Assembly: GCF_056712565.1 (NCBI RefSeq) | Contig: NZ_CM160072.1 | Length of the DNA stretch: 64,000 nt | Direction: 5' to 3' (one strand) | In this document: piece after piece, positions 35,001-44,881 of the stretch | Position numbering within the stretch: position 1 is the stretch's first letter | How the letters are laid out: each line of letters opens with the position of its first letter | Program-made: the position numbers and the translations under genes | The notes under the pieces: model-generated | What the model was told of the DNA's origin: nothing | Database searches by the model: none | The model's input: only the letters and a program-made list of their open reading frames with translations

Positions 35001-37166
35001 TCAGAAATCGAAGGTGACGGATGCACGCACTTCGCGGCCGCCGCCGATAAACGCACTTGGGGAACCGTTATCGCCATCGGTACCCGATGGGAAGATAGAA
35101 GCCCAGTAATGTTTATCAAACACGTTGTTTACCACCACGCGGAAAGTGGTTGGGACGTTGCTCACTTTCGTGGTGTAACGCGTTCCCAAATCCCATGTGG
35201 TATAGCTGCTGGCGTAAGAGGTGTTGGTATCGTTCGCCGCGCGTTTGCCCGTATAATGGACGTTAGCGCTGTAAACCCATTCCGGTATGGACGGCAAACT
35301 GTATTCCGCCAACAGATTGGCCTGCACTTTCGGCACGCCGACAACCTGTTTATTGCTGGTTGAGGCATTCGCCGTATCTTTCAGTTTCGGGTCGAGGAAG
35401 GTCACGCCGCTGTAAATATTCAGCCCCTGCCACACATTCCCGGCAGCGGTTAACTCAAGGCCGTTGTTAACCTGGTTACCCTGCTCTTTATACACGTTAT
35501 CCGTATCAAGATAGGCAAACGGACGTTCCAGTCGGAACAGCGCGGCGCCTAGATTCATCTCGCCGATGTCCGATTTTAGCCCCACTTCATACTGCTTGCT
35601 GCGATACGGGTTTAGCGTTTGACCGGCATTTTTTACGCTCTCATCCGTCGGTGCGGTACCGCCCTGCTCCAGCGAATCGGCATAGCTAACGTAGGCCATT
35701 GTGTTAGGGGTAATTTTATACATCAGCGCGGCGTTCGGACTTAAACCATTTTCATCAACCTGGTTCGTTTGATTACCGTGCTTATCGTAGTTTTTAGTCT
35801 GCAGCCAGCTCTGGCTGAGATAGAACATTGCCGACCACTGCGGCGTAAATGTCACCGTATCGCCGAGCGTAACGCTCTGCTGAGTATTTACGCTGGAGCG
35901 GTATCGCGGCCCGCCGGTGCGGATTTTGCCATCGCCCTGCTCATCTATCGCATCCGGGTGATACATATTTGTTGTACCCCAGCTATAGCTGGAACCTGTT
36001 CCTTTGGCACTATAAAGCGACCAGACATATCCCGTGGTAGAAAGTGACAGATCGTGGCCGATAGAGCCGGTATCAATATGACCATTCAGCCCGGCGGTGT
36101 TGCTCAGGACGCGAAAACGTCCGGCAGCGGTGGAATCCTTCATCGAACGAGAGATATCGCCCTGATTGTTGAGTATTTTACTGGAAACACTACGCATCGC
36201 GCGGTCAGCCTGCTGCCAGCCCACGCCAGCGTTCATGGACCAGTCGTCGTTAAAGTAGTGGATCAGGCGAGTGCTGATGGTATCGGTAGTGAGGTCGTTG
36301 CCCGCAGTGCTGAGCGCCAGATTTTTGTCCTTCGGATTCGGCGCAGACGGCAGTTTGACGTTCGGCCCATAGTTAAAGCTACCGACATAGCCTTTCTGGA
36401 TAAATTCGTAATGGCTGGCGTCGAGCTGTAGCTGAGTGCCCGGCTGAATATTCCAGTCGAGCGCAACGGAAACGAGTTTGCGACGCAGCGTGCTGTCATC
36501 CACATTGCCTTCCCCTTCCTGATCAAGCAGGTTCACGCGATAGCCAAACCGTTTGTTTTCATCAAAATGGCCACCCAGATCGGCATGGCCGGTAAACGCA
36601 CTGCGGCTTTGATAGCCCAGCGTCACTTTACGCAGCGTCTCTTCGGTTGGGCGCTTCGCCACGAAATTAAACTGCCCTGCTGGGCTCGCCGGGCCGTACA
36701 GCGCGCCGGTCAAACTGTTAAGCACATCCATGCGCTCAAGCATTTCCACCGGAAACGCGGTTGTTGAAACGATATTCAGCCCGTCCAGACGGCTGTTGGC
36801 CACCACGCTGCCCTGCATCCCCCGACTTTGCGGACGCCCGACATCCATTCCACCGCGCGCCTGCATTTGCGTACTGGGAGAGTATTTCAGCATCTCGCTG
36901 ACGCTTTGCGCCTGCTGATTTTCAATCATCTCTTTAGTAACAGTGGTGCTGGAATATGGTGTTTCGATCCAGGATTTCGTTCCCAGCGGGCCGACATCTA
37001 TATCGTTCGTTTTGAAACCGGCACCGGCGGCAGAATCGGTGGTGTCGGCGGCGGTGTTGCCCGTGACAATCATTTCATCTTCAGAAGTAGACGAGGCATG
37101 AGCATGAAGCGGTATGAAAGACGCTAATGCTGGCAAAAGCGCAGCGAAAGTTATTTGAGTTTTCAT
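35001..37166 (-). CDS. TonB-dependent outer-membrane siderophore/iron-complex receptor
   Basis: 721 aa; signal peptide, plug domain, C-terminal barrel ending in F; first gene of the four-gene uptake operon. Confidence 0.8.
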   Translation of the reverse strand: MKTQITFAALLPALASFIPLHAHASSTSEDEMIVTGNTAADTTDSAAGAGFKTNDIDVGPLGTKSWIETPYSSTTVTKEMIENQQAQSVSEMLKYSPSTQMQARGGMDVGRPQSRGMQGSVVANSRLDGLNIVSTTAFPVEMLERMDVLNSLTGALYGPASPAGQFNFVAKRPTEETLRKVTLGYQSRSAFTGHADLGGHFDENKRFGYRVNLLDQEGEGNVDDSTLRRKLVSVALDWNIQPGTQLQLDASHYEFIQKGYVGSFNYGPNVKLPSAPNPKDKNLALSTAGNDLTTDTISTRLIHYFNDDWSMNAGVGWQQADRAMRSVSSKILNNQGDISRSMKDSTAAGRFRVLSNTAGLNGHIDTGSIGHDLSLSTTGYVWSLYSAKGTGSSYSWGTTNMYHPDAIDEQGDGKIRTGGPRYRSSVNTQQSVTLGDTVTFTPQWSAMFYLSQSWLQTKNYDKHGNQTNQVDENGLSPNAALMYKITPNTMAYVSYADSLEQGGTAPTDESVKNAGQTLNPYRSKQYEVGLKSDIGEMNLGAALFRLERPFAYLDTDNVYKEQGNQVNNGLELTAAGNVWQGLNIYSGVTFLDPKLKDTANASTSNKQVVGVPKVQANLLAEYSLPSIPEWVYSANVHYTGKRAANDTNTSYASSYTTWDLGTRYTTKVSNVPTTFRVVVNNVFDKHYWASIFPSGTDGDNGSPSAFIGGGREVRASVTFDF

Positions 37167-37594
37167 GAATCACTGATCGTTATGTAAATATTTATATTAC
37201 GATCGGTGCATAGGCAAAATTATGATCCAGATCACACGTGAATGTAAGTTATTTACAAATTACGCTAACCTTCTGTCTCCGCTCTTTGCAGCATAAAAGT
37301 ATGGCGGCGCGTTGTTGAAAGCAGGAGCGGCCGGGTTGTCAGAAAGCTGGTTTGGACGCAAGTAATATATAACAACTCTGATTACCGCATACTGTCAGGA
37401 CAGTATCTACTTGAGCGTCCGCCTTTGGCACAAAGCGGACTGTCAGATTAGATTCAGACCTGTACTCATTAGCTGATACAAATCAGCCACATATACCTGC
37501 ATTCAAAATAATTTCAGAAAGATATTATCTCCGTGAATCCCCCGCCACCTTTCCGGTGCACGGGGTTTTGTCTTTTTTCACTGGGAATACATGT

Positions 37595-38029
37595 ATGAAT
37601 CCGTCTGATGCCATTGAGGCAATTGAAAAACCGCTCTCCTCCCTGCCTTACCCGATTTCCCGTCACATCCTGGAACATCTGCGCAAACTCACCCGTCACG
37701 AACCCGTGCCTGGCATTATGGGTAAAAGCGGGGCCGGTAAATCCTCACTCTGTAATGCACTGTTTCAGGGGGAGGTCACCCCGGTCAGTGCACTCATGAC
37801 AGTGCTTCCCGGACATGCCGCCATCCATCTGATGACACGCCTGCAGGACGAACTGCGCACGGAGTCTGTCCGCACTCAGACCCGTGAACAGTTTACCGGT
37901 GCGGTGGACCGGATATTTGACACGGCGGAGAGTGTCTGCATTGCCTCTGTTGCACGCACGGTTCTGCGCGCCGTCCGTGACTCGGTGGTCTCTGTTGCCC
38001 GCGCGGTATGGAACTGGATTTTCTTCTGA
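37595..38029 (+). pseudogene. yeeP: yeeP/yfjP-type prophage GTPase with an internal in-frame deletion of the GTPase core
   Basis: N-terminus with P-loop GIMGKSGAGKSSLCNALFQGEV and C-terminal tail ...VSVARAVWNWIFF are present, but the G3-G5 region is missing (145 aa instead of about 290). Confidence 0.55.
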
Positions 38030-38116
38030 ACCCGGTGGTGATGTACCAGGCTGTTGTTACAGATTTTTAACTCCATGAAAACACTATGCAAACGCAGCCA
38101 TACCCGGGGTGTCCCC

Positions 38117-38145
38117 TTGCGTTGTGTTCCTCAAGTTAATAGAAT
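38117..38145 (+). promoter_or_regulatory. candidate sigma70 promoter (-35 TTGCGT, 17-bp spacer, -10 TAGAAT) for the dynamin-like operon
   Basis: Hexamers read in sequence at 38117..38122 and 38140..38145. Confidence 0.45.
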
Positions 38146-38147
38146 AC

Positions 38148-38190
38148 ATCGATCGTTACTATTATATTGATCGTTATAAACGATCGTTTG
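38148..38190 (+). promoter_or_regulatory. cluster of three GATC (Dam) sites including the palindrome GATCGTTATAAACGATC, immediately downstream of the candidate -10
   Basis: GATC at 38151, 38169 and 38182; perfect palindrome at 38169..38185. Confidence 0.5.
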
Positions 38191-38246
38191 TAGTAAATGA
38201 CCTCCTCCGTGGTTGTCATGAAAATGCGTCTCAGGAAGGTTAAATA

Positions 38247-40631
38247 ATGCACGAAAAGAACATCGCCCTGCTTTGTGATGAAGCCGACCGACTTTTGCAA
38301 CTGAACATTAATCTGCTCCGGCAAATGGTTGAGGAGCCAGATGTGTTATCTGACAGTAAGAACGAAAACAGACTGCTTTTTGATAAACAGAAAGCACTGA
38401 AAAGAATTGAGGAGCTGGAGGGCGAACAAATCAAAACCGCCCGCAGGGAGATGGTGCTGGCTGTTGTCGGCACGATGAAAGCAGGCAAATCAACCACCAT
38501 CAACGCCATTGTGGGGCAGGAAATTCTGCCTAACCGTAACCGCCCCATGACCTCTGTACCGACGCTCATCCGCCACGTTCCCGGAAAAACTGAGCCGGTT
38601 CTCCATCTGGAACATATTCAGCCTGTCCGCAATTTATTAATCACACTGCAGGAAAAACTCGCCACCCCGGCAGGACAGCAGGTCGCACAGACCCTGCAGC
38701 AAACCGGGGATACCCGCGAACTGCTGGATATTCTGACGGATGATGGCTGGCTCAAAAATGAATACCACGGGGAGGAGGAAATCTTTACCGGACTGGCATC
38801 GTTAAACGATCTGGTTCGTCTTGCTGCGGCAATGGAGACTGAATTTCCTTTTGATGAATACGCAGAAGTGCAGAAACTGCCGGTGATCGACGTGGAATTC
38901 AGCCATCTGGTGGGGATGGATGCATGCCAGGGAACACTCACACTGCTGGATACCCCCGGCCCTAATGAGGCCGGACAACCGCAGATGGAAGTGATGATGC
39001 GGGATCAACTGCAGAAAGCCTCTGCGGTTCTGGCTGTGATGGATTACACCCAGATGAACTCAAAAGCGGATGAAGACGTCCGTAAAGAGCTTAATGCCAT
39101 TGCTGACGTATCAGCCGGCCGCCTGTTTGTACTGGTCAATAAATTTGATGAGAAAGACCGCAATGGCGATGGGGCAGATGCCGTACGCCAGAAAGTTCCG
39201 GCAATGCTGAACAGCGATGTGCTGCCCGCCTCCCGCGTTTATCCCGGATCCTCACGCCAGGCATACCTGGCTAACCGTGCGCTTCATGAGTTACGGAAAA
39301 ACGGAACCCTTCCTGTTGATGAAGCCTGGGTCGATGATTTTGTCAGGGAAGCCTTCGGTCGCATGAAAAAAGATTACGTCTGTAAAGACAGCGAACTGGC
39401 AACTGAAGGGGCGACAGACCTGTGGGAATGCTCACTTATCGATCAACTGATAACGGAAGTCATACTGAGTTCACACTCCAGAGCTGCGGCACTGGCGGTT
39501 GATTCTGCCGCCGCAAAACTGATGCAGAATGCAGAAAATATCAGTGAATACCTGTCGTTACGCCATCAGGGGCTGATGCAAAGTATTCAGTCACTGCAGG
39601 CGCATATCACCAGCCTGCTTGAGGATATCCGGGAAATAGCAGACTGTCAGGAGCAGGTGACCGCTGATGTCAGAATGGCCATGGAGGAGATCGATGCCAG
39701 AACCCGGGAATTACTGACGGGGGTCTGCACCTCACTGGAAGAGGAGCTGAATGACTATTTCAGAAGCGGTAAACGCAAAGAACAGCAAATGCTGGAGGAA
39801 GAAAATTCAGCGCAGCCCCGGGAGAGAAACGCATTCGCTTTCTTTCACGATATTTTCGGAACCGGAAATCAGCATGACAGGATGCGGGACTTTGATCCCG
39901 ACAGCCCCGAAATAAAATTCAGTGATCGCAGGGAAGCCCTTGAACTGATGACGCAAATCGAATCGACCGTGACCAGCCTGCACCGTGAGGCTGAAGCACA
40001 GTTCCGGCCTGAGCTGGAGAAAATCGTCAGCGGGATTGAAACAGGTTTTCGTGGCACGGCCCTGTACGCCACAGAAAACATTGCCGGTCGCATCAATACC
40101 CGCCTGGAGGATGAGGGCTTTACCGTAAAAATCAGTTTTCCGGCAGTCAGTCAGTTACAAACCCGGCTCGCGGTAAAAACAAATCTGAGTGCGCTTATGG
40201 AGGAAAGAACGGAGACCGTCACCCGTCGCCGTCGGCAGAGTGGTTTATGGGGAAAGATTTGTGGAGCGTTTGGCACCAGTGACTGGGGCTGGGAAACCTA
40301 TAAAGAGGATGTGAGCCGCAGTGTTATCAATATCAACACCGTCAGGAAGGAAGTTATGTCACTGACCCGGGCATATTTCGGGGAGCTGCAGGCATCCATT
40401 GAGCAGGATATTAACCAGCCCGTCCGCCAGGAAATCGATGCCTTTTTCTGCGCATTCAGGGAGAAAGTTGAACAACTGCGTAACACGCTGATTCAGAGCT
40501 CTGAAGATCATAAACGCGATCAGCAGGCACAGGAACGGCTTACCAGGCGACTTCAGGCATTAAATGAAAGGGTTCCTGAGCTCATTACTGACAGTAAGGC
40601 GCTGAGGGAAGAGCTGGAGACAATGCTGTGA
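38247..40631 (+). CDS. bacterial dynamin-like large GTPase (CrfC/YjdA-type)
   Basis: 794 aa; G1 GTMKAGKSTTINAIVG, G3 LLDTPGPNE, G4 LVNKFDEKD, long coiled-coil C-terminal half; RBS aggaagg 8 nt before ATG. Confidence 0.8.
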   Translation: MHEKNIALLCDEADRLLQLNINLLRQMVEEPDVLSDSKNENRLLFDKQKALKRIEELEGEQIKTARREMVLAVVGTMKAGKSTTINAIVGQEILPNRNRPMTSVPTLIRHVPGKTEPVLHLEHIQPVRNLLITLQEKLATPAGQQVAQTLQQTGDTRELLDILTDDGWLKNEYHGEEEIFTGLASLNDLVRLAAAMETEFPFDEYAEVQKLPVIDVEFSHLVGMDACQGTLTLLDTPGPNEAGQPQMEVMMRDQLQKASAVLAVMDYTQMNSKADEDVRKELNAIADVSAGRLFVLVNKFDEKDRNGDGADAVRQKVPAMLNSDVLPASRVYPGSSRQAYLANRALHELRKNGTLPVDEAWVDDFVREAFGRMKKDYVCKDSELATEGATDLWECSLIDQLITEVILSSHSRAAALAVDSAAAKLMQNAENISEYLSLRHQGLMQSIQSLQAHITSLLEDIREIADCQEQVTADVRMAMEEIDARTRELLTGVCTSLEEELNDYFRSGKRKEQQMLEEENSAQPRERNAFAFFHDIFGTGNQHDRMRDFDPDSPEIKFSDRREALELMTQIESTVTSLHREAEAQFRPELEKIVSGIETGFRGTALYATENIAGRINTRLEDEGFTVKISFPAVSQLQTRLAVKTNLSALMEERTETVTRRRRQSGLWGKICGAFGTSDWGWETYKEDVSRSVININTVRKEVMSLTRAYFGELQASIEQDINQPVRQEIDAFFCAFREKVEQLRNTLIQSSEDHKRDQQAQERLTRRLQALNERVPELITDSKALREELETML

Positions 40632-41533
40632 CTTCACCATTTATTCAACAAATTGCTGATAACCGGGTATGTCAGGTACTCACCTGTCTTCCTGAAAAAT
40701 TTGTGGTTGATTTCGCAAACGGAATCGATGTTGCACAGGAGCATATCCGCACGGCCGGAGAGCGCACGTTCTTCCGGCGTTTAAAAGAGGGACTGACCGG
40801 CGAAGGCGCTGCACGGCAGAATGCCATCAATGCTTCGGTTGCACAGGGCCTTGAGGCGTCCCTGCGCTGGCTGACGGAGCTGACAACGTCACTTGCCACC
40901 ACAAACTACGCGATTACCCGGGTAAACGACAGGGTCAGTTCACTGGTCAGTGATACTGCCAGGCTGGCGCATTATTCCGCAGATACACGGGAGCAGTTAC
41001 TCATCCTGGCCGATCAGGTTCACCATAAACTGAATCATCTTGAAGAAAAACTCCACCGTGTTGACCAGGTTCAGCGGGCGCAGTTACATCTTGAGCAGAT
41101 ATTCTCATGGTGGAGCGCCGGGCGATATGCGTCATTTTCCCCTGCCGGACGTTGTTATGTGGCGCTTGAAGAGCTTCGCTGGGGCGCGTTTGGTGATGTG
41201 ATACGTCAGGGCGAAACAGGCCAGGTTAACCAGCTACTGGATATTCTCAGACATAAAGCATTAACGCAGATGGCACAGGAGAGTGGCGGTAGTGCAACCG
41301 TGCGTCTGAACACTCTGGACTGGCTTGGTGGTCAGGGCCGGGAGCAGGCAGATAACGAGTGGCATGACGCGATTAACTGGCTGGGAGACTGGTGCAGTGA
41401 AGAGCAGCATCCGGTGATCTGGTCAACCACGCAGGCTGCAGAACACTTACCGGTTCGCATGCCTCGCCTCTGCTCTGCAGAACGCCTCTCTGAAAGTATG
41501 GTCGATGAAATATTTCAGAAGGGGGCTGCATGA
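40628..41533 (+). CDS. dynamin-associated partner protein (possibly YjcZ-like), function unknown
   Basis: 301 aa; GTG start overlapping the dynamin stop (GTGA overlap), implying translational coupling. Confidence 0.55.
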   Translation: MTSPFIQQIADNRVCQVLTCLPEKFVVDFANGIDVAQEHIRTAGERTFFRRLKEGLTGEGAARQNAINASVAQGLEASLRWLTELTTSLATTNYAITRVNDRVSSLVSDTARLAHYSADTREQLLILADQVHHKLNHLEEKLHRVDQVQRAQLHLEQIFSWWSAGRYASFSPAGRCYVALEELRWGAFGDVIRQGETGQVNQLLDILRHKALTQMAQESGGSATVRLNTLDWLGGQGREQADNEWHDAINWLGDWCSEEQHPVIWSTTQAAEHLPVRMPRLCSAERLSESMVDEIFQKGAA

Positions 41534-42600
41534 GTACAGAAATGAAAACGGGGCTGGTGCTGTCCGGTGGCGGGGCGGTGGGCGCTTATCAGGCGGGAGT
41601 GGTTAAGGCACTGGCAGAGTGTGGTACACAGATCAGCATGGTTTCAGGGGCCAGCATTGGCGCATTCAATGGTGCCATTATCGCGGCCTCTCCCGATCTG
41701 TCAGAAGCTGCCGTACGCCTGGAGGCGCTCTGGGATCATCTGGGGAATAATCAGGTGCTGTCGGTAAACCGATTGGTTTACTTTTCATTGCTGAAAAAAT
41801 TGTTCCAGGCAATGAACCTCTGCCAGATCCCCGGACGTGCAGGAGCACTGCTTACGACGCTTCTTCGCCATATATCGATACTCAACGGGTTTGACAATCT
41901 GATGGCTCAGCCGTTGTTGTCAGATGAGCCCCTGACAGCGCTGTTGGATCATTATCTTGATACTGATGCTCTGGCAGACGGGCTACCGCTGTATGTGTCG
42001 CTGTACCCCACAGAAGGGGGCATGCAGGATATTATTGACTGCATTCGTGCTGAACTGGGTGCCGGAACCACGAAAAACGCCGTTTTTCAGCATATCCAGA
42101 GCCTGCCCCGCGGACAGCAGAAAGAGGCTCTGCTTGCGTCAGCCGCGCTGCCCCTGCTGTTCCGTCCCCGTGAGGTTCAGGGGACAATGTTCGGTGATGG
42201 TGGTATGGGAGGATGGCGAAATATGCAGGGAAATACCCCTGTGACGCCTCTGGTCGATGCCGGATGCAATATGGTGATTGTGACGCATCTGAGTGACGGT
42301 TCTTTATGGGATCGCCAGGCTTTTCCGGACACCACAATCCTTGAGATCCGTCCCCGGAAAAGGCTGAAATATGCAGGTGATGGTGACAACAGCGGCGGTC
42401 TGCTCAGTTTCACGTTGGCACATACCGACGCCTGGCGTCAGCAGGGCTATGAAGACACGATGCTGACGATGGAGCATATCCGGAAACCGCTGGCAGCACG
42501 TCAGGTACTGTCCCGGTCAGAAACGGTGTTGCAGAAAAGTCTGGAGATAACGGAAGAGGCAGATTTGGCACTGAGAAACGCGATGGCCCGGATTAAATAA
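41530..42600 (+). CDS. patatin-like phospholipase
   Basis: 356 aa; glycine-rich oxyanion loop LSGGGAVGAYQAG, nucleophile elbow GASIG (GxSxG), catalytic-Asp DGG motif (FGDGGMGG); ATGA overlap with the preceding gene. Confidence 0.8.
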   Translation: MSTEMKTGLVLSGGGAVGAYQAGVVKALAECGTQISMVSGASIGAFNGAIIAASPDLSEAAVRLEALWDHLGNNQVLSVNRLVYFSLLKKLFQAMNLCQIPGRAGALLTTLLRHISILNGFDNLMAQPLLSDEPLTALLDHYLDTDALADGLPLYVSLYPTEGGMQDIIDCIRAELGAGTTKNAVFQHIQSLPRGQQKEALLASAALPLLFRPREVQGTMFGDGGMGGWRNMQGNTPVTPLVDAGCNMVIVTHLSDGSLWDRQAFPDTTILEIRPRKRLKYAGDGDNSGGLLSFTLAHTDAWRQQGYEDTMLTMEHIRKPLAARQVLSRSETVLQKSLEITEEADLALRNAMARIK

Positions 42601-42617
42601 AGACGCCCCAAAGAAAC

Positions 42618-42641
42618 GCCACCGCCTGTGGTGGTGTTTTT
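42618..42641 (+). terminator. rho-independent terminator after the patatin gene
   Basis: Hairpin gccaccgcctgtggtggtg followed by ttttt. Confidence 0.55.
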
Positions 42642-42930
42642 CCTGGCTGGTGTTATTGAAAATATTTTCAGATATATATTACCTGAGAGAAAGTTTTACC
42701 CCTCACCTGTCAATTCACTCACTGGAAATTTAATTATGCAATTACCTGTAAAGTTATTAATGAGCCTTATATCTCTGGTCAGCGTTATTGCACGTGCCGG
42801 GAAATATAAAAATTACATCCGGGATGAAATAAAATACTGGCGATATACATCATACAAGGGGGGGGAATTTCCGGAAGGTTTCACTGATGAGAAATTTTCC
42901 AGCGCCATTTACAACGGAAGAATATTTACA

Positions 42931-43413
42931 ATGAAACGTTTACATACCCTGATGTTATTTCTGGCGGTTCTGTTTACTGGCTTTAACGTGGAAGCAGCGA
43001 GCGTGAAACAAGCGCTCAGCTGCGACCCAAACGCCCGGGCTGAACAACCTGGAGCGTGTCCAACAACGTACGAGTTGTACGAAGGTGACGCTGCCTACAA
43101 AGCTGCGCTTGACAAAGCATTAAAACCGGTCGGACTGAGCGGCATGTTCGGTAAAGGCGGGTATATGGATGGCCCTGGCGGAAACGTAACGCCAGTAACC
43201 ATTAACGGTACAGTCTGGCTCCAGGGCGACGGTTGCAAAGCCAATACCTGCGGCTGGGACTTTATCGTAACACTCTATAACCCAAAAACCCATGAAGTCG
43301 TTGGCTACCGCTACTTTGGTTTAGATGACCCGGCCTACCTGGTTTGGTTCGGCGAAATTGGCGTGCATGAATTCGCGTATCTGGTGAAAAACTACGTAGC
43401 TGCGGTTAACTAA
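42931..43413 (+). CDS. secreted protein, possibly Ivy-like (inhibitor of vertebrate lysozyme) fold
   Basis: Signal peptide MKRLHTLMLFLAVLFTGFNVEA; Cys pair in GDGCKANTCGWDF reminiscent of the Ivy CKPHDCG loop; assignment tentative. Confidence 0.4.
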   Translation: MKRLHTLMLFLAVLFTGFNVEAASVKQALSCDPNARAEQPGACPTTYELYEGDAAYKAALDKALKPVGLSGMFGKGGYMDGPGGNVTPVTINGTVWLQGDGCKANTCGWDFIVTLYNPKTHEVVGYRYFGLDDPAYLVWFGEIGVHEFAYLVKNYVAAVN

Positions 43414-43428
43414 TTTAAGGAGTCTGTC

Positions 43429-43839
43429 ATGAAAACTTTTATCAAAACTTTACTCGTTGCTGTAACTATTCTGTTCTCTGTCTTCGCTACGGCGAAACAA
43501 GTAAAACTGCCAAACAACATCAAATACGTTAATACTACAGAGGCGTTTTCCTGTACTGAGATTGACGGTATGAATTGCCAGACGAAGAATCCGTTTAACT
43601 ATAAAGATAACAGCTATGTTTTCGTGCTTGAACGTGGTGGTGCCTGGTGTTACGACTACACTGTCTCGGTACTTAACCTGAAAACCGGGAAAGCACAGAT
43701 GCTCGAATACAAAGACAACCAGCTGTGCTCAGGTAGCAACAAACCGTTCTTCGAAATCAAAAATGGCGTACCGACGGTAGGAGTCATCGACACATCCGGA
43801 AAACCTGTCGTTGTGGCTCTGGACAAACTTAAAACCTGA
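43429..43839 (+). CDS. small secreted cysteine-containing protein, function unknown
   Basis: Signal peptide MKTFIKTLLVAVTILFSVFATA, 136 aa, RBS aaggag upstream. Confidence 0.5.
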   Translation: MKTFIKTLLVAVTILFSVFATAKQVKLPNNIKYVNTTEAFSCTEIDGMNCQTKNPFNYKDNSYVFVLERGGAWCYDYTVSVLNLKTGKAQMLEYKDNQLCSGSNKPFFEIKNGVPTVGVIDTSGKPVVVALDKLKT

Positions 43840-43980: not shown

Positions 43981-44016
43981 AGGCCGCGTCTTCTCCGGGA
44001 GACGTGGCTTTTTTCA
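43981..44016 (+). terminator. rho-independent terminator after the secreted-protein pair
   Basis: Hairpin around ccgcgtcttctccgggagacgtgg followed by cttttttc. Confidence 0.5.
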
Positions 44017-44059: not shown

Positions 44060-44881
44060 ATGCGATTAGCAAGTCGTTTTGGTTATGCTGCAAACCAGAT
44101 ACGTCGTGACCGTCCACTGACACATGAAGAGCTGATGCACCATGTGCCGGGGATTTTCGGGGAAGAGAAACACACGTCCCGAAGCCAGAACTATACGTAC
44201 ATCCCCACCATCACCGTACTGGAAAATCTGCAGCGGGAAGGCTTTCAGCCGTTCTTCGCCTGCCAGACCCGTGTGCGCGACCAGAGCCGCCGGGAATATA
44301 CCAAACATATGCTGCGTCTGCGGCGGGCCGGACAGATAACCGGTCAGCATGTGCCTGAAATTATTCTGCTCAACTCCCATGACGGTTCATCCAGCTACCA
44401 GATGTTACCCGGATATTTTCGTGCCATTTGTACCAATGGCCTGGTCTGCGGTCAGTCGCTGGGAGAAGTCCGGGTGCCACACCGGGGAAACGTGGTGGAC
44501 AGGGTCATAGAAGGTGCTTACGAAGTGGTGGGCGTGTTTGACCTGATTGAGGAAAAGCGTGATGCCATGCAGTCGCTGGTCCTGCCGCCACCGGCACGCC
44601 AGGCGCTGGCACAGGCGGCGCTGACTTACCGTTATGGTGATGAACATCAGCCCGTCACCACTACCGACATTCTGACGCCACGACGCCGGGAGGATTACGG
44701 TAAGGACCTGTGGAGTGCTTATCAGACCATCCAGGAGAATATGCTGAAAGGCGGGATTTCCGGTCGCAGTGCCAGAGGAAAACGTATCCATACCCGGGCC
44801 ATTCACAGCATCGATACCGACATTAAGCTCAACCGGGCGTTGTGGGTGATGGCAGAAACGCTGCTGGAGAGCCTGCGCTGA
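44060..44881 (+). CDS. DUF932-family cryptic-prophage protein (YfjQ-like)
   Basis: 273 aa; position and size match the DUF932 gene preceding the antirestriction/RadC genes in CP4-57-type elements. Confidence 0.5.
   Translation: MRLASRFGYAANQIRRDRPLTHEELMHHVPGIFGEEKHTSRSQNYTYIPTITVLENLQREGFQPFFACQTRVRDQSRREYTKHMLRLRRAGQITGQHVPEIILLNSHDGSSSYQMLPGYFRAICTNGLVCGQSLGEVRVPHRGNVVDRVIEGAYEVVGVFDLIEEKRDAMQSLVLPPPARQALAQAALTYRYGDEHQPVTTTDILTPRRREDYGKDLWSAYQTIQENMLKGGISGRSARGKRIHTRAIHSIDTDIKLNRALWVMAETLLESLR

Follow-up and report, generated by a model that had tools for sequence, protein, structure and literature searches.

Introduction

To our knowledge, Dam/OxyR phase variation in E. coli is textbook material for exactly one gene family, Ag43. 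In Salmonella, opvAB is reportedly a Dam/OxyR phase-variable operon linked to phage resistance. In an agn43-type switch, OxyR no longer binds once the GATCs are methylated, bound OxyR keeps Dam away, and expression is heritably and reversibly ON or OFF, dam mutants being locked OFF and oxyR mutants ON. Switches of the agn43 type are recognized by a single OxyR site, which overlaps all the GATC sequences and acts as a repressor, and those of the pap type (Dam/Lrp) by a pair of GATCs with a spacing of about 102 bp, located in two sets of Lrp sites that precede the promoter, together with a PapI-like co-regulator (PMC2909390). Here, a stretch of 64,000 nucleotides from contig NZ_CM160072.1 (assembly GCF_056712565.1), referred to as the window, is considered in the light of these systems. 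It is very probable that positions 38117–38185 of the window constitute an agn43-type Dam/OxyR epigenetic phase switch heading a five-gene operon (38247–43839), whose first gene encodes a dynamin-family GTPase. The analysis covers the homology of promoter and operator, the quality of the OxyR motif, the conservation of the GATC sites, the architecture and distribution of the fusion between switch and operon, and the extent of the operon.

Alignment with the agn43 and cah switches

The first-pass annotation of the window had likened this region to the agn43 (flu) switch and had called for its alignment to the regulatory region of K-12 agn43/flu. The alignment reveals a shared promoter and GATC layout in a syntenic position. 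Compared with K-12 yeeP-isrC-flu, identity is ~96% through the 3′ end of yeeP, which in the window is a 5′-truncated, yeeP-like remnant of the GTPase gene forming the left flank of the cassette site (37556–38029, plus strand), and collapses right after the stop codon. A core of ~55 bp then re-aligns, consisting of TAATAGAATA.A.CGATC, followed by CTATT.TAT.GATCGTT and CGATCG. When O157 cah and NCTC10444 agn43 are included, the agn43-type architecture holds for all four sequences: they have in common a −35 of the TTG type, a spacer of 17 nt, TAATAGAAT as the −10 block, GATC-I six bases past the −10, and a distance of 13 bp between GATC-II and GATC-III, and each switch sits directly after an island GTPase gene. 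The distance between GATC-I and GATC-II is 18 bp in the window versus 19 bp in agn43/K-12. The position expected for flu in the CP4-44 island, after yeeP, is also confirmed, with the yeeP remnant upstream and yeeS-yeeT-cbeA-cbtA-yeeW, then tmaR-yeeA-sbmC, downstream.

Over the switch region, the sequence of the window matches that of E. coli Nissle 1917 with 100% identity. The spacer upstream of the switch (38030–38116, plus strand) is unrelated to the K-12 agn43 allele, and its first ~45 bp past the stop codon are identical to the O157 GTPase-cah intergenic region. O157 cah further agrees with the window in its −35 (CTTGCGT), in its −10 (GTTAATAGAATA), and in having the three GATCs. By these alignments, the kinship of the window's switch with the agn43/cah family is not in doubt. 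It had been supposed that the flu regulatory region was retained while the coding region was replaced. The replacement is essentially borne out, as the switch is joined to a dynamin cassette, but it is not the K-12 allele that was retained: the window's allele has diverged from it and, as aligned, is closer to the upstream region of O157 cah.

Promoter and GATC sites

The −35 hexamer TTGCGT (38117–38122) and the −10 hexamer TAGAAT (38140–38145), both on the plus strand, are separated by 17 nt. The −35 aligns with CTTGCGT of O157 cah and with TTGTCC of K-12 flu; TAGAAT is constant in all alleles examined, among them those of K-12, O157, and NCTC10444 and the fusion alleles, which were found without any pattern criterion. 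This promoter was earlier described as near-consensus. Its hexamers and spacing stand, its strength does not, as the −35 agrees with TTGACA at 3/6 positions, the −10 with the sigma-70 consensus at 5/6, and a generic promoter scan did not call the pair. The scan called a weaker TTAATA-18-TATTAT overlapping the operator, to which no weight was given. The promoter of the window is credible because it is homologous to the mapped agn43 promoter, and not on account of consensus strength.

Three Dam sites follow directly, as read in the sequence from the start: GATC-I (38151–38154), GATC-II (38169–38172), and GATC-III (38182–38185), located 6, 24, and 37 nt past TAGAAT and spaced by 18 and 13 bp. GATC-I is constant in all alleles examined. 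The sequence GATCGTTATAAACGATC at 38169–38185 is a perfect 17-bp palindrome, as previously noted, though the sites were then variously placed, with one GATC or "the middle two" inside it; GATC-II and GATC-III form its left and right ends. The K-12 isrC/agn43 leader is annotated from the G of GATC-I, 6 nt past TAGAAT, and 5′ RACE in strain EC958 placed the start of the agn43 operon ~228 nt upstream of its ATG (PMC4807369). By homology, the transcript of the window is thus predicted to start at ~38151, the G of GATC-I, on the plus strand and under the OxyR site, as in agn43.

How much of this could arise by chance was assessed with 200 dinucleotide-preserving shuffles of the window, used both for GATC triplets and for the OxyR score. 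Triplets within 40 bp occur three times in the 64 kb, versus 2.3 ± 1.6 times in the shuffles, of which 38% contain at least three. The triplet by itself is therefore no more than chance, whereas the OxyR motif that overlaps it is beyond chance, its score being attained anywhere in only 2 of the 200 shuffled windows (1%). These numbers bear on the view that the GATC cluster is fortuitous, or that the palindrome is a terminator or attenuator hairpin of the upstream GTPase gene. The expectation of about two such triplets per 64 kb fits that view, as does a generic scan that flagged 38168–38186 as terminator-like. However, the hairpin has three G-C pairs and a poor T-run, the terminator found at empty sites of this kind looks different, and the homology to the agn43 and cah switches effectively refutes this explanation, whose probability we regard as negligible. 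Folding of the predicted leader RNA showed nothing out of the ordinary (z = −1.6), and on this basis a riboswitch or attenuator was rejected; the hairpin of the palindrome is a by-product of the OxyR dyad.

Two other GATC clusters were observed in the window. The tightest triplet (61825–61842, 17 bp) lies inside a HisB-like coding sequence and most likely reflects coding constraint, not regulation. Four GATCs (37175, 37201, 37224, and 37230) occur within 59 bp of AT-rich DNA at 37175–37233, just upstream of the gene for a TonB-dependent receptor (35001–37166, minus strand). They could belong to a Dam-sensitive operator, for Fur or another protein, or be due to chance; the promoter of the sci1 type VI secretion system is an example of overlap between Fur and GATC sites.

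The predicted OxyR operator

A single operator for an OxyR tetramer is predicted at 38148–38184 (ATCGaTcgtTaCTAT-tatattg-ATCGtTataAaCGAT); it spans the start site and contains GATC-I to GATC-III. These 37 bp, ATCGATCGTTACTAT-TATATTG-ATCGTTATAAACGAT, agree with 16 of the 20 specified positions of the OxyR consensus ATAGnTnnnAnCTAT-N7-ATAGnTnnnAnCTAT, which is the top score in the 64 kb (runner-up, 14/20). Even with up to three mismatches allowed, the 37-mer occurs only once in the window, and no second OxyR-like site scoring at least 14/20 is present within 1 kb of it. Fusion alleles score 15–16/20, and agn43-type alleles, the K-12 agn43 operator included, 14/20. In silico, a single OxyR site overlapping all the GATCs matches the repressor site of the agn43 type.

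Fusion of the switch to the operon

In O157:H7 and NCTC10444, the order of elements is GTPase gene, switch, cah or agn43, a 110-bp spacer, and the dynamin operon. In the window, there is no autotransporter gene between the switch and the dynamin gene, and the switch abuts the final ~46 bp of the cah-dynamin spacer, ~46 bp before the dynamin ATG. At the junction, CCTCCT (38200–38205, plus strand), homology to the cah/agn43 leader gives way to homology with the terminal part of the cah-dynamin spacer; the breakpoint itself can be placed to within a few bases. The proximal leader of the dynamin cassette (38203–38246, plus strand) contains the ribosome-binding site AGGAAGG (38233–38239) and differs by one mismatch in 44 bp from the end of the O157 cah-dynamin spacer. 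A search of 36500–39000 against Rfam found no RNA family, while the K-12 leader, used as a control, was recognized as IS102 at 252.6 bits; an IsrC-type small RNA locus was accordingly rejected for the window.

No further promoter is apparent: the distance from junction to ATG, 46 bp, leaves no room for one. In NCTC10444, the spacer between agn43 and the dynamin gene likewise contains no promoter-like or terminator-like site. It follows that the operon would be read from the switch in both arrangements. Such reading has a precedent in agn43-yeeR-irmA, shown experimentally to be read as one OxyR-repressed operon (PMC4807369).

The agn43-dynamin spacer of NCTC10444 (L013, 4391–4500) and the cah-dynamin spacer of O157 (L003, 3935–4044) are alike up to ...GCTCATTG and wholly divergent from there on. 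The point of divergence coincides with the fusion junction of the window, which suggests a recurrent recombination boundary of the dynamin cassette. On the other side of the switch, the left part is common to the Nissle and K-12 islands (TonB-dependent receptor/yoeA and yeeP′), which part ways at the yeeP stop codon. The remnant at 37556–38029, which resembles the yeeP pseudogene of K-12 in its 5′ truncation, is annotated as a hypothetical protein in Nissle, while other strains carry a full-length GTPase gene, intact at 873 bp.

Distribution and variation of the fusion

Of 5426 complete E. coli genomes, 1985 carry the 217-bp fusion and 2472 the dynamin gene. These counts come from DNA searches of E. 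coli genomes, as a search for homologues of the dynamin protein was swamped by near-identical E. coli entries. Among the carriers are ST131, 55989, and Nissle 1917, and the fusion is also found in E. albertii, where the dynamin protein is 90% identical. Six fusion alleles were aligned, five from E. coli and one from E. albertii. In all six, the intergenic region is exactly 217 bp long and the junction is identical, and it can thus be concluded that the fusion arose once and then spread. If the switch works as proposed below, expression of the operon is probably confined to a heritable fraction of cells in about one in three E. coli strains. In Nissle 1917 (NZ_CP022686.1), the 217-bp query and the query from the 5′ end of the dynamin gene each match two places, and the second copy, elsewhere in the genome, possibly has a switch of its own.

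The six alleles vary at 24 of 217 columns, six of them in the 37-bp operator and none past 38200. Within the operator, none of the six variable columns falls on a GATC (P = 0.076), and five of the six coincide with positions left unspecified (N) in the OxyR motif (P = 0.059). The three GATCs, the −35, and the −10 are constant in all six alleles and in a further one, that of the commensal E. coli strain MP1.

Expression data from strain MP1

In 2026, an RNA-seq study of MP1 compared the wild type with a strain deleted for the Kapi1 prophage, using two colonies of each (PMC12922286). The genes most strongly up-regulated in the lysogen, in both media, formed the five-gene cluster SID94_19700–19720; their up-regulation was tied neither to the medium nor to the phage lifecycle, the authors called the regulation undescribed, and phase variation was not considered (PMC12922286). 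We found that this cluster consists of the dynamin, RdcB-like, and patatin genes and two genes for hypothetical proteins, with a GTPase gene exactly 217 bp upstream. The intergenic region is the same fusion, ~94% identical, with the −35, the −10, and the three GATCs intact. The flanking GTPase and DUF932 genes are outside the five-gene cluster named in the study.

The most economical explanation of these data is a clonal difference in phase state, a pitfall documented for agn43 (PMC3764049). The other locus singled out as up in lysogens in every condition is hyxRAB (PMC12922286), and hyxR is a known phase-variable gene under the invertible element hyxS (PMC6083910). The authors of the study read their data as prophage cross-talk. 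In line with this, the operator could be a conventional signal-responsive one, served by OxyR or another regulator and answering to oxidative stress or to the prophage, so that the MP1 difference would be a true trans effect of Kapi1 and the GATCs incidental. The canonical spacing of the OxyR consensus agrees with such an operator, and so does the observation that a second homologous dynamin operon of MP1 (on PAI-aspV) also seemed to be up, although the authors flagged this signal as affected by multi-mapping (PMC12922286). However, the up-regulation follows neither lytic-lysogenic behavior nor medium, Kapi1 is without an annotated methyltransferase or an obvious OxyR/Dam regulator, hyxRAB with its phase-variable gene behaves in the same way, and the homologous agn43 operator is a proven phase switch. 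We therefore consider a responsive operator very improbable. A phage-encoded Dam as the cause of the MP1 result was rejected as well, Kapi1 having no annotated methyltransferase.

Proposed mechanism

By homology with agn43, it is proposed that the sigma-70 promoter TTGCGT-17-TAGAAT starts transcription at ~38151. In the OFF state, the GATCs would be unmethylated, and OxyR bound to 38148–38184 would both block RNA polymerase and shield the sites from Dam, making the state heritable. In the ON state, Dam would methylate the GATCs after replication, OxyR would be excluded, and the five-gene operon would be transcribed, a state that would also be heritable. A population would thus be a mix of ON and OFF lineages. 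OxyR binding, methylation sensitivity, and switching at this locus are what we infer from the homology of the element, and the heritable ON/OFF expression of the operon from that homology together with the indirect published expression data.

Several points weigh against this model. The MP1 data come from two colonies of each strain, and the prophage may have acted in trans. The agn43 reporter constructs that demonstrated portability included the leader (PMC4872104); switching rates or bistability could differ in the window, given its 18-bp instead of 19-bp GATC spacing and the lack of the ~200-nt leader. In the six fusion alleles, the operator taken as a whole varies at least as much as its flanks, and the constraint within these alleles is suggestive but, taken alone, only marginal. 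In the cross-species scan described in the next section, the GATC pattern was required, and its conservation in four of the cross-species loci is by construction. The main texts of the EC958 and single-molecule real-time (SMRT) phasing methylome papers hold no locus-level list of unmethylated GATCs.

The altered spacing, the absence of the IS102 leader, and the marginal constraint would also be expected of a degenerate or locked relic of an agn43 switch, either OxyR-repressed and mostly OFF or constitutively ON with fully methylated GATCs, in both cases with no heritable bistability. An operator nearer to the consensus could, moreover, strongly favor OxyR. We consider such a relic unlikely. 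The GATCs, the −35, and the −10 have stayed constant across two species, in alleles that vary elsewhere in the 217 bp, and a locked element would not give a large expression difference that is confined to the operon and appears in both media between the isogenic lineages of MP1.

A switch with differing cargos

A pattern scan across species, with one genome per species and ~0.03 chance matches expected, found five loci, one of them the fusion of E. albertii. In Citrobacter braakii, C. amalonaticus, and Enterobacter wuhouensis, a GTPase gene (~58–60% identical) is followed by the switch, two small proteins with signal peptides, and DUF932. The locus of C. braakii (L007, 3977–5155; also L009 and L010) has TTGCCC, TAGAAT, three GATCs, and an OxyR score of 14/20, and its proteins are 154 and 157 amino acids long. 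A relation of these two Citrobacter cargo proteins to IrmA was considered and rejected, as a sequence search of the PDB gave no match and none was detectable. The synteny and the differing cargo of the loci found by the scan are not by construction. The fifth locus (L008) is a cah-type switch with the 3′ end of an E. coli-type GTPase gene (94% amino acid identity) on the 1.6-kb contig JAIJJM010000733.1, labelled as a metagenome-assembled genome of Collinsella sp.; this contig is almost certainly mis-binned Enterobacteriaceae DNA.

Two K-12 islands show the same two flanking genes with only 91 bp between GTPase and DUF932, namely CP4-57 (yfjP/yfjQ; L017, 10575–10665) and CP4-6 (ykfA/yafZ; L018, 13007–13097). 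Judged by this arrangement, they are empty slots, and their gaps hold a terminator hairpin analogous to the terminator that precedes DUF932 in the window. The cross-species loci and the empty K-12 slots together argue that switch and cargo move as one cassette, set between two island genes that are conserved. The switch is independent of what it controls: reporters (T7 RNA polymerase, cyan fluorescent protein, SgrS) placed under the agn43 regulatory region switch heritably (PMC4872104), and in Citrobacter and Enterobacter the cargo is a different one.

A wider reading can be offered tentatively, with rather less confidence than doubt. It assumes that the agn43-type switch is the head of a swappable, phase-variable cargo cassette occupying a fixed GTPase-DUF932 slot of CP4-like islands across Enterobacteriaceae, and that the dynamin/RdcB-like/patatin cargo is a costly anti-phage or membrane-remodelling system, bet-hedged via Dam/OxyR in E. 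coli, including Nissle 1917 and ST131, in such a way that just part of the population is armed. The slot would then be either empty, as in CP4-57 and CP4-6 of K-12, or filled by adhesins, small secreted proteins, or the dynamin/patatin system. The near-canonical spacing of the operator might, in addition, let OxyR's redox state influence the ratio of ON to OFF cells.

The five-gene operon

All genes of the operon are on the plus strand. The first (38247–40631) encodes a protein annotated in RefSeq as dynamin family, a paralogue of CrfC/YjdA/RdcA. Against the NCBIfam CrfC model it scores 551 bits, the equivalog cutoff being 1146, which makes it a paralogue and not an orthologue. Its match to LeoBC in PADLOC is weak (E = 4e-6, 24 bits, no stretch passing alone), there is no match to LeoA, and a distant one to the structure of BDLP (2j68). 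The second gene (40628–41533) overlaps the first by 4 bp and encodes an RdcB-family protein according to the RefSeq annotation alone, no PADLOC or NCBIfam match having been obtained at the thresholds used. The third, again with a 4-bp overlap, encodes a patatin-like phospholipase (41530–42600). Hypothetical proteins are encoded by the fourth gene (42736–43413 in RefSeq, an earlier GTG start being possible at 42628) and the fifth (43429–43839). A strong intrinsic terminator with a 13-bp stem and a T-run (43981–44010, plus strand) closes the operon ahead of the DUF932 gene at 44060.

Between the patatin gene and the fourth gene, at 42620–42636, there is a hairpin followed by a T-run (CACCGCCTGTGGTGGTG TTTTTCC). 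It could be a partial internal terminator, yet the five genes of MP1 are reported as co-regulated.

With PADLOC, the proteins of the operon gave no convincing match to any known defence system. Among bacterial dynamins, LeoA/LeoBC ("Eleos") and DynA of B. subtilis have been implicated in defence against phages. With these, and with RdcA/RdcB (YjdA/YjcZ, CrfC), the cargo has in common only the same broad families. It differs from RdcA/RdcB in lying below the CrfC equivalog cutoff and in the added patatin phospholipase, and the MP1 cargo proteins are only ~30% identical to the core RdcAB (PMC12922286). The operon is a candidate phage-defence or membrane-remodelling system.

Significance

Full-text literature searches returned no paper that ties the dynamin/RdcB/patatin operon to agn43, Dam, OxyR, or phase variation. 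The mechanism is familiar; the regulated operon and the cassette behavior are new. The present results indicate that the switch known from Ag43 has an unrelated operon of five genes under its direct control in the 1985 fusion-carrying E. coli genomes and in E. albertii. Bulk transcriptomic, proteomic, and phenotypic studies of the operon would be confounded by the phase state of the colonies used, and the MP1 study apparently was. Furthermore, with the agn43 switch found next to varied cargos in a single island slot, the way in which portable epigenetic switches evolve can be put to a direct test.

Comparison with known systems

By its homology, layout, and operator, the switch of the window is a member of the agn43 type and belongs neither to the pap type nor to the gtr/opvAB type. 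Its GATC spacings of 18 and 13 bp, the location of the sites downstream of the −10, and the absence of any GATC between 37230 and 38151 differ from the pap arrangement. Agn43 (flu) of K-12 and of uropathogenic E. coli, including agn43-yeeR-irmA, resembles the window in homology, place, layout, and the single OxyR operator over the start, and both agn43-yeeR-irmA and the window's switch head a polycistronic unit. The differences concern the cargo, an autotransporter in agn43 versus the dynamin-like/RdcB-like/patatin operon in the window; the ~200-nt IS102/IsrC leader with a terminator, which the window lacks; and the closeness to the OxyR consensus, 14/20 in agn43 versus 16/20. A long leader of this kind and an autotransporter in first place are typical of the family but do not belong to the mechanism of switching.

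The locus of cah, a calcium-binding homologue of Ag43, in O157:H7 has the upstream sequence closest to that of the window and the same dynamin-RdcB-patatin operon downstream. However, the cah gene with its leader stands between switch and operon in O157:H7 and is absent in the window. The cah operator (L003, ~820–870) has AACAG in place of the CTATT quarter-site of agn43 and the window, with all three GATCs kept, and its OxyR site may be weakened by this change.

The Salmonella gtr and opvAB systems share with the window the use of Dam and OxyR, GATCs within OxyR half-sites, and a horizontally acquired cargo (for gtr, PMC2909390). Unlike them, with three to four OxyR half-sites and paired GATCs upstream of the promoter or overlapping its −35, and with alternating activating and repressing occupancy, the window has two half-sites only, forming one tetramer site past the −10; no sequence homology to gtr/opvAB was seen, no search for it having been made. 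If the candidate phage-defence or membrane-remodelling operon of the window is indeed subject to epigenetic bet-hedging, this would parallel opvAB in Salmonella.

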